DNA from: Patescibacteria group bacterium
Lineage (GTDB): Bacteria; Patescibacteriota; UBA1384; XYA2-FULL-43-10; 1-14-0-10-43-13
Length of the DNA: 64,000 nt
NCBI GenBank assembly: GCA_041649155.1
Contig: JBAZNP010000001.1
Span: forward strand, 366,564-430,563
Direction of reading: 5' to 3'
Below the pieces are notes generated by a model. The model made no database searches, had not been told where the DNA came from, and saw only the letters and a program-made list of their open reading frames with translations. The position numbers and the translations under genes were made by a program. Positions 13,674 through 14,232 of this stretch are shown piece after piece (position 1 is the first letter of the stretch; each line of letters begins with the position of its first letter).

Positions 13674-13700
13674 GTGCAAGAGATTATTTTTCGTGCGATA

Positions 13701-13727
13701 ATGAGCTTGCGAGCTCATTTTTTTTAT
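13701..13727 (+). terminator. Rho-independent terminator after rpmH (atgagcttgc/gagctcat + T9)
   Basis: Stem-loop plus T-run. Confidence 0.55.
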
Positions 13728-13765
13728 TTACTTAATATATCCTGTGTCATTCCCAATTTTAACTC

Positions 13766-13795
13766 GTCATTCCCGCGAAGGCGGGAATCTACTAA
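13766..13795. repeat. Family H hairpin repeat (identical to the 8874 copy)
   Basis: gtcattcccgcgaaggcgggaatctactaa; abuts the GIY-YIG start codon. Confidence 0.7.
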
Positions 13796-13797
13796 AG

Positions 13798-14085
13798 ATG
13801 AAATACTATGTATATATTCTTACAAGTGAGTTTAATGGCACATTATATATTGGTGTAACTAATAACTTAGTGAAAAGAGTTTGGGAGCATAAAAACAAGT
13901 TGTTAGAGGGATTTACTAAAAAGTTTAATGTTTCTTTACTTGTTTATTATGAAGAATATTTAGATATTAGAGATGCGATTGAAAGAGAAAAAAGAATGAA
14001 AAAGTGGAATCGTCAATGGAAAGTTAACCTTATTGAAAAATCCAACCCTTCATGGAATGATTTATATGATAAAATAGTTAATTAG
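13798..14085 (+). CDS. Small GIY-YIG nuclease superfamily protein (YhbQ/UPF0213-like), inserted between rpmH and rnpA
   Basis: MKYYVYILTSEFNGTLYIGVTNNLVKRVWEH = GIY-YIG core. True start at ATG 13798; the ORF-track start 13744 lies in the repeat. Confidence 0.75.
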   Translation: MKYYVYILTSEFNGTLYIGVTNNLVKRVWEHKNKLLEGFTKKFNVSLLVYYEEYLDIRDAIEREKRMKKWNRQWKVNLIEKSNPSWNDLYDKIVN

Positions 14086-14113
14086 TAGATCCTTAAAGCA
14101 CCTTCCCATCTTT

Positions 14114-14195
14114 GTCATCCCCGCGTAGGCGGGGATCCACGATAGTAAAATCTTAAAACTATTAGTAGATTCCCCTCTTCAGGGGAATGACAAAG
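14114..14195. repeat. Two family H hairpin units in opposite orientation (14114-14145 and 14162-14195)
   Basis: gtcatccccgcgtaggcggggatccacgatag and ctattagtagattcccctcttcaggggaatgacaaag. Confidence 0.65.
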
Positions 14196-14232
14196 AAAAT
14201 AATGGGAATGATAAATGTAAATAATCCAAATT

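Follow-up and report, generated by a model that had tools for sequence, protein, structure and literature searches.

A hairpin-bracketed gene for a probable Ssn-family GIY-YIG nuclease, inserted between rpmH and rnpA of a Patescibacteria genome

The genes rpmH and rnpA are normally contiguous, and a stretch of DNA in which a nuclease gene amid hairpin repeats lies between them raises the question of what that nuclease is, whether the hairpins belong to it and how such a unit came to lie there. The stretch analysed here (the window, 64,000 nucleotides, C1:366564-430563) comes from a Patescibacteria group bacterium (GCA_041649155.1) with a genome of 0.99 Mb, in six contigs and with 37.5% GC, and it carries, in order, dnaA(-), rpmH, an open reading frame (ORF) with a GIY-YIG domain, rnpA, yidD and yidC. 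An earlier note, made from the letters alone, had reported a split of about 560 bp between rpmH and rnpA that holds a GIY-YIG gene and hairpins, and this proved accurate: the gap measures 559 bp and contains a 95-amino-acid ORF that is preceded by one hairpin and followed by two. Our analysis indicates that the ORF very probably encodes a single-domain GIY-YIG nuclease of the Ssn family, with the surrounding hairpins as its cognate Ssn-related motifs (SRMs; NTS/dRS3-type, CGTC-tagged REPs), and shows that gene and hairpins together are a lineage-specific insertion. The Ssn/SRM kind of system, which the earlier note had not recognised, was published in 2025, and the locus reveals no new one.

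Ssn proteins are site-specific nucleases of single-stranded DNA (ssDNA) that go together with SRM/NTS hairpins (Chenal et al. 2025, Nat Commun 16:2388, PMC11893778). SsnA of Neisseria meningitidis is a 94-amino-acid single-domain GIY-YIG protein whose binding to the NTS hairpin repeat (CGTCATTCCCGCGMAVGCGGGAATCYRG) requires ssDNA and a single orientation and which cuts upstream of the repeat at a distance of a few nucleotides, and cutting is abolished in the mutants Y6A, Y17A and E64A (PMC11893778). In the Neisseria and Wolbachia enzymes a monomer binds the folded hairpin, in ssDNA only and in a single orientation; binding depends most on the C directly 3' of the palindrome and cutting on the three bases 5' of it, the cut in the characterised enzymes falling a few nucleotides 5' of the tag (PMC11893778). 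The sequence of the stem, besides its shape, matters to Ssn, and homologues vary in specificity; ssn genes are typically flanked by hairpins, whose generalised form was named SRM (PMC11893778).

In order to compare the window protein with SsnA, Neisseria sequences were obtained by searching 61 Neisseria genomes with it, and 20 of them yielded a homologue (best E=9e-33), at loci that are dense in NTS with up to 17 copies in 3.3 kb (L183). Chenal et al. counted as Ssn homologues proteins with E<1e-10 against N. meningitidis-type SsnA. The product of L183 has 94 amino acids, including Y6, Y17 and E64, and BLASTP aligned it to the window protein with 53% identity, 80% positives, 0 gaps and E=1e-38; in this ungapped alignment, Y6, Y17 and E64 stand at the same positions in both proteins. 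The domain PF01541 spans residues 2-77 of the 95, and no other domain was found. A sequence search of the PDB with the window protein returned nothing at E<=0.01, and NCBIfam gave no equivalog, its sole match being a sub-threshold one to TIGR01453, group I intron endonuclease, which scored 22.6 bits where the cut-off is 56. No other record of an identical protein was found, and Rfam, run in E-value mode over 13300-14300, gave matches at chance level only (mir-281 and FtrB, for example), well short of the gathering scores. N. lactamica NS19 and N. mucosa were also tried as a source of SsnA and rejected; they contain no Ssn homologue, and their small GIY-YIG proteins are YhbQ-like and without NTS flanks. 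Among the homologues collected, those of L165 and L167 (G044, Candidatus Peribacteria; 57-60% identical) each have three in-frame TGA codons, half of which align to glycine, which suggests that this genome reads TGA as an amino acid.

The interval and the two host genes that border it contain the following features.

13539-13673, + strand: rpmH (ribosomal protein L34), the upstream host gene; 44 amino acids, PF00468 E=6e-20
13700-13727, + strand: intrinsic rpmH terminator from the terminator scan; stem 13700-13719, T-run to 13727
13746-13755, + strand: outer half-site GTCATTCCCA, 20 nt 5' of the left hairpin
13765-13797, + strand: left SRM/NTS hairpin with 5' CGTC tag and 3' tail (CGTCATTCCCGCGAAGGCGGGAATCTACTAAAG), sense; palindrome 13766-13789
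13798-14085, + strand: probable ssn, the gene of a single-domain GIY-YIG nuclease of the Ssn family; 95 amino acids, PF01541 E=4e-15
14081-14090, + strand: 10-bp direct repeat ATTAGTAGAT, copy 1, overlapping the ssn stop codon
14113-14140, + strand: internal SRM hairpin (TGTCATCCCCGCGTAGGCGGGGATCCAC), sense; palindrome 14114-14137, SRM motif match
14161-14170, + strand: 10-bp direct repeat ATTAGTAGAT, copy 2, forming the right hairpin's inner tail
14165-14192, - strand: right SRM hairpin (TGTCATTCCCCTGAAGAGGGGAATCTAC on the - strand), antisense; palindrome 14168-14191, SRM motif match
14204-14213, - strand: outer half-site (TGGGAATGAT on the + strand), the mirror image of 13746-13755
14233-14622, + strand: rnpA (RNase P protein), the downstream host gene; PF00825 E=5e-20

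The features of the gap all lie at, or within a few bases of, the positions that the earlier note had given, although one detail has to be corrected: the last base of the left hairpin had been said to abut the ATG, whereas the palindrome stops 8 nt and the conserved tail 2 nt before it. The right and left hairpins form a terminal inverted repeat of 30 nt that is 87% complementary, and DNA folding of the left, internal and right hairpins gave -8.9, -9.7 and -7.1 kcal/mol (z = -4.8, -3.7 and -2.8). The left hairpin (13765-13792) shares 27 of its 28 positions with the NTS consensus of Neisseria, and the SRM search motif of Chenal et al., HGTCWYN(0-2)YYVSBRHN(0-5)WNVSBRGN(0-2)RNCYNB (PMC11893778), is matched by all three hairpins of the cassette, at 13765-13792 (+), 14113-14140 (+) and 14165-14192 (-). 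Genome-wide, this motif is found at 34 places, compared with 1.15 in shuffled sequence, and the pattern GTCATYCC-N8-22-GGRATC occurs 15 times in the window, where 0 are expected, and 105 times in the genome. The union of the motif with a second, structure-based finder comprised 135 hairpins genome-wide, 98 of them intergenic, and a C directly follows the palindrome in 99 of 103 hairpins, although the finder did not demand it. Neighbouring hairpins no more than 120 nt apart are almost always arranged head to head (+- 31, -+ 0, ++ 2, -- 2), and no bias of hairpin orientation with respect to the replication strand was seen in this genome. A strict NTS scan of genome contigs returned at least 120 loci from many phyla, Neisseria among them, and in 120 such loci the pairs counted +- 56 and -+ 6.

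Within the shared frame GTCATYCC...GGRATC, the hairpins of the genome fall into stem classes with compensatory stem changes, the most abundant being AGAC (26), CGCG (24), GACC (16) and GAGC (11). The probable ssn at rpmH-rnpA is flanked by the classes CGCG/CCTG and its paralogue, at C1:339188-339505, by AGAC/CGGG. On contig C1, orphan half-sites GTCATYCY that share the orientation of full hairpins also lie 20, 21, 21, 21, 22 and 42 nt 5' of them, against a chance expectation of about 0.5; the phasing is one of 21 nt, and a cassette of the same-genus assembly G001 shows two or three half-sites phased in this way (L044 2840-2880).

Are the hairpins tied to this gene or merely common in its surroundings? 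The genome contains four small GIY-YIG genes, and hairpins accompany only the two that are of the Ssn type, which are 68-69% identical to each other; the two non-Ssn genes (35-41% identical) have none. Among 973 crudely delimited genes, 31 have a sense hairpin at their start and 46 an antisense hairpin after their stop, and the only two that have both are exactly the two Ssn-type genes. In relatives, 11 homologue loci were compared and 10 have hairpins adjoining the gene, mostly a sense one upstream of it and an antisense one downstream, and any hairpin at all occurs at only 3 of 29 rnpA loci. Across 41 relatives, which carry 0-5 Ssn-type copies each, with about five pseudogenes, the number of hairpins rises with the number of Ssn-type copies (Spearman 0.63, p=8e-6, not corrected for phylogeny). 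The hairpins are thus specifically tied to the Ssn subfamily of GIY-YIG proteins; the suggestion of the earlier note that the nuclease might generate or propagate the repeats stays a conjecture.

We compared the junction among 30 relatives with rpmH and rnpA on one contig, a check that the earlier note had proposed, and the cassette is absent from all 30. The spacer between the two genes measures 35-175 bp in 20 of these relatives and is larger in the other 10; the four larger spacers that we inspected contain unrelated genes. Since no Ssn-type gene lies at this junction in any of the 30, the unit half-site/SRM(+)/ssn/SRM(+)/SRM(-)/half-site, at about 13746-14213, is a lineage-specific insertion, as the earlier note had supposed in speaking of an insertion into a normally contiguous junction. 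The assembly of the same genus, G001, is without rpmH and rnpA, so that the nearest relative is not comparable here. The terminator, on the other hand, had been listed earlier with the parts of the arrangement that was read as a cassette, but a terminator of the same type, aatgagc..gctcaTTTTTT, follows rpmH in G004, G015, G016 and G012, where 35-110 nt then lead to rnpA, and the rpmH terminator is thus ancestral host DNA that lies outside the cassette and is conserved in the clade. The inserted unit sits between this terminator and rnpA, co-oriented with the operon, and the mirror-image half-sites GTCATTCCCA (13746-13755) and TGGGAATGAT (14204-14213) probably mark the outer limits of the inserted DNA. 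Outside the half-sites, about 19 and 20 nt of ordinary spacer are left, and when filled and empty sites are aligned the intergenic DNA is too diverged to place the insertion point to the base.

The cassette also occurs at other sites, and these differ between genomes. G001 has one between a metallophosphoesterase gene (mpe) and nfo, two genes that overlap in the present genome (TGATG), and a second one between a LamG-like and a pilN-like gene, where the present genome has a 258-bp spacer without a cassette; reciprocally, the second cassette of this genome, within the rfb operon, is missing at the corresponding site of G001. In a large protein collection the nearest homologues are 78-84% identical, and the three nearest cassettes that were examined on their contigs (81-84% protein identity) all lie between the NiFe hydrogenase small and large subunit genes, hydS and hydL. 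These three are short metagenome contigs whose flanking genes have 72-85% protein identity to those of the present genome, in which hydS and hydL are separated by a 23-nt spacer, an empty site. Comparison of the window cassette with L193, the most complete of the contigs, gave 81% nucleotide identity for the gene, but 30 of 30 positions for the left hairpin with its tail and 35 of 35 for the right hairpin (14157-14191). The outer flanks are about 50% identical, and the similarity ends at the outer GTCAT/ATGAC, which is the place where Ssn would be expected to cut by homology. All five cassette sites are short spacers in co-oriented operons, and the cassette is invariably co-oriented with them. 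We infer that the cassette is gained and lost as a discrete unit, and its presence at different sites in relatives fits the small selfish or mobile cassette suggested by the earlier note. Matches at 70-73% identity were named Nitrospinae, Planctomycetes and Smithella, and the same-genus copies reach only 66%; since the matches from other phyla exceed those from the same genus, the comparison suggests that the cassette spreads horizontally.

The interior of the cassette is variable as well. A 70-nt segment (14091-14160) that holds the internal hairpin is missing in the cassettes of L191 and L190 and is bounded in the window by the perfect 10-bp direct repeat ATTAGTAGAT (14081-14170). L191 (930-975) and L190 (3285-3327) have a single copy of ATTAGTAGAT that runs straight into the right hairpin, and in L193 the segment is present with a repeat of 9/10. 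This looks like one hairpin unit inserted with target duplication, or like recombination at the conserved tail of the hairpin.

If the enzyme acts as its characterised homologues do, it would cut ssDNA specifically and in one orientation next to each terminal hairpin: in the top strand immediately to the outer side of 13765, in the bottom strand immediately to the outer side of 14192. These predicted cuts coincide with the two outer edges of the cassette. The shared orientation of cassette and operon makes it probable that ssn is expressed by read-through from rpmH and that the same transcripts still serve rnpA. The roughly 135 related hairpins, largely head-to-head dimers, would be further substrates of the enzyme, whose likely activity is the trimming of ssDNA that bears hairpins, for example incoming transforming DNA. 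A promoter-like site of the extended -10 type (TTGAAA-17-AATGAT, with TG before) lies at 14033-14061, inside the 3' end of ssn and directed towards rnpA. Such a site could compensate for the insertion; sites of this kind are not more numerous than in shuffles.

Some observations weigh against the assignment of the protein to Ssn and of the hairpins to the protein. The window protein shares only 53% identity with the characterised-type enzyme, in a family whose members differ in specificity (PMC11893778), and at least four abundant stem classes stand against two Ssn-type genes, although stem sequence matters to these enzymes (PMC11893778). Nor do genes and hairpins always occur together: G031 has 47 hairpins but lacks an Ssn gene, N. 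lactamica NS19 (G041) has NTS clusters and no detectable ssn, and in G007 and G025, which may use a variant of the motif, an Ssn-type gene is present but the pattern used detects no hairpin. The protein might instead be a housekeeping GIY-YIG protein of the YhbQ/UPF0213 type that happens to lie among ordinary intergenic REPs or terminators, since it is small and stands alone and since such hairpins are common in intergenic DNA (98 of 135). We consider this extremely improbable, as the hairpin bracket is confined to the Ssn-type genes, the two other small GIY-YIG genes of the genome are free of hairpins, the YhbQ-like protein of N. lactamica (91 amino acids) differs and is without NTS flanks, the gene is missing at rpmH-rnpA in all 30 relatives, and the alignment with SsnA contradicts it. 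A free-standing homing endonuclease (Seg-like), which would cut double-stranded DNA (dsDNA) at a cassette-less rpmH-rnpA junction and spread by repair, would account for the GIY-YIG catalytic domain, for the pattern of presence and absence and for the weak match to TIGR01453; yet the 95 amino acids are the catalytic domain only, lacking a DNA-binding domain, the characterised Ssn members do not cut dsDNA (PMC11893778), and the sites of related cassettes are many and unrelated, not a single homing site, so that this reading is very unlikely. The comparison with homing endonucleases made in the earlier note likewise does not hold, since the protein is a bare Ssn catalytic domain and the characterised members cut only ssDNA, by the hairpin (PMC11893778).

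With the Ssn-family assignment retained, it remains to be explained how the cassette changes place. It may be an autonomous mobile element of about 430-470 bp, in which a 95-amino-acid hydrolytic Ssn cuts outside its own terminal hairpins in ssDNA and so drives the excision or copying of SRM-ssn-SRM, the gene-less head-to-head dimers being its non-autonomous derivatives; it would then be a GIY-YIG analogue of IS200/IS605 and of REP/RAYT that lodges in spacers of a few nucleotides in co-oriented operons (rpmH-rnpA, hydS-hydL, mpe-nfo, rfb) and is expressed by read-through. We regard this as possible but doubtful. It is consistent with the unrelated operon junctions at which the cassette lies while close relatives have empty sites, with terminal hairpins that are 100% conserved against 81% for the gene and with a homology that ends exactly at GTCAT/ATGAC; the polarity of the hairpin pairs, in this genome (+- 31, -+ 0) the same as that of the cassette ends and prevalent across many phyla, the copy number of 0-5 with its pseudogenes, and best matches that cut across phyla above the same-genus copies point the same way. 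Nevertheless, the genome has no near-identical copies, its two being 68-69% identical, the cassette ends are without a consistent target-site duplication (the 10-bp direct repeat flanks the internal segment only), the two outer cuts would fall on opposite strands, no strand-transfer or ligation step is known for a hydrolytic GIY-YIG nuclease, and movement has not been observed. Alternatively, Ssn may be a domesticated host enzyme that, for example, limits the recombination of incoming ssDNA as in Neisseria, with gene and hairpins moved passively when dispersed hairpins undergo homologous recombination or when DNA is transferred horizontally, which we find plausible, though short of probable. 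Its role in transformation was shown in N. meningitidis (PMC11893778), the gene is intact in most relatives, no recent copying within the genome has taken place, the dispersed hairpins offer ample homology for recombination, and a PilB/GspE-like ATPase with a putative role in DNA uptake is encoded at 16729-18381. Recombination between hairpins, however, poorly explains insertion at empty sites that are free of hairpins (the mpe/nfo overlap TGATG and the 23 nt of hydS-hydL), and it leaves unexplained why the ends are more conserved than the gene.

The cassette resembles several known systems to different degrees. With Ssn/SsnA of N. meningitidis it shares a single-domain GIY-YIG protein of 94-95 amino acids with Y6, Y17 and E64, 53% identity to the Neisseria protein, a gene that is flanked on both sides by oriented hairpins of NTS/SRM consensus and a genome enriched in them. 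It differs in its host, an ultra-small member of the Patescibacteria, a phylum unmentioned in PMC11893778, in the coexistence of several stem classes, in the extra internal sense hairpin and the outer half-sites and in its place within the rpmH-rnpA operon by the origin region. The hairpins can also be compared with the family CGTC-1 of CGTC-tagged REPs, to which Neisseria dRS3 and Rickettsia RPE-6 belong and whose members mainly form head-to-head dimers; its authors found no enzyme dedicated to CGTC REPs (Di Nocera, De Gregorio & Rocco 2013, PMC3733652). In the present genome the hairpins are tied to Ssn genes, in agreement with Chenal et al. They resemble CGTC-1 in the (C/T)GTC 5' tag, the 8-bp stem that starts with AT, the 4-nt loop, the C-rich 3' tail (CTA/CCA) and the head-to-head dimers, which make up 31 of 35 adjacent pairs, whereas the stems are more varied and some loops reach 20 nt or longer.

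REP/REPIN elements with RAYT were reportedly treated by Bertels and Rainey in 2011 and by Ton-Hoang in 2012. As in that system, the gene of the enzyme is bracketed by inverted copies of a hairpin that is recognised in ssDNA, and gene-less doublets occur genome-wide; unlike it, the enzyme is a hydrolytic GIY-YIG protein instead of an HUH/Y1 (IS200-like) transposase, the tag is CGTC/TGTC instead of GTAG, and the gene is multi-copy and changes its site between relatives. Of the REP/RAYT works, Nunvar 2010 and Ton-Hoang 2012 are cited in PMC11893778. The 'peel and paste' elements IS200/IS605 are alike in their subterminal hairpins recognised in ssDNA and in lacking long terminal inverted repeats of the classical type with DDE chemistry, but in them a covalent HUH enzyme cuts one and the same strand at both of the asymmetric ends, whereas the ends here are inverted copies and a joining activity of the enzyme is not known. 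Of the traits of insertion sequences in general, discrete ends and empty sites are seen here, and near-identical copies and a consistent target duplication are not.

These comparisons extend the Ssn family to ultra-small Patescibacteria, with 0-5 Ssn-type copies per genome among the relatives, and show that an insertion of this kind, placed downstream of the rpmH terminator, is tolerated by a core operon next to the origin of replication. A cassette with perfectly conserved hairpin ends at different operon junctions, with the reciprocal sites empty, bears on the mobility of NTS-ssnA-NTS that PMC11893778 left open, and the comparative support goes beyond that paper, which only raised the idea. 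If the cassette does move by its own nuclease, this would explain the spread of CGTC-tagged REPs, including the dRS3/NTS of pathogenic Neisseria and the RPEs of Rickettsia; the CGTC-tagged REP superfamily would then have, in Ssn, its long-sought mobilising enzyme, Ssn would be a class of transposase outside the DDE, HUH, serine and tyrosine types, and the head-to-head dimers across many phyla would be gene-less progeny of SRM-ssn-SRM.

Further repeats were observed in the neighbourhood and in relatives. The intergenic region between dnaA and rpmH (the origin region) contains at 13359-13442 a head-to-head hairpin dimer, just upstream of an rpmH promoter-like site, made up of a long-stem variant, GTCATTTCGACC...GGAGAAATC (+), together with GTCATCCCGACCAACGTGGAGGGATC (-). 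In the relative G028 an SRM-type hairpin lies in frame within rnpA (L028 1614-1638) and is read as ...EIPRQARDDNKTGSGFKLQ... in RnpA, and there may be a similar case in G032 (L037 1383-1407); the former is, and the latter may be, an in-frame hairpin insertion in an essential gene. The gene rfbD is 50-60 codons longer in G001 (L189 1483-2523), G004 (L186) and G012 (L188) than in the present genome, and the extension consists of in-frame inserts of another repeat, such as ...TQDLGSRAQESII..RPKTQD..., which occurs twice in G001 and whose peptide motif recurs in neighbouring ORFs.

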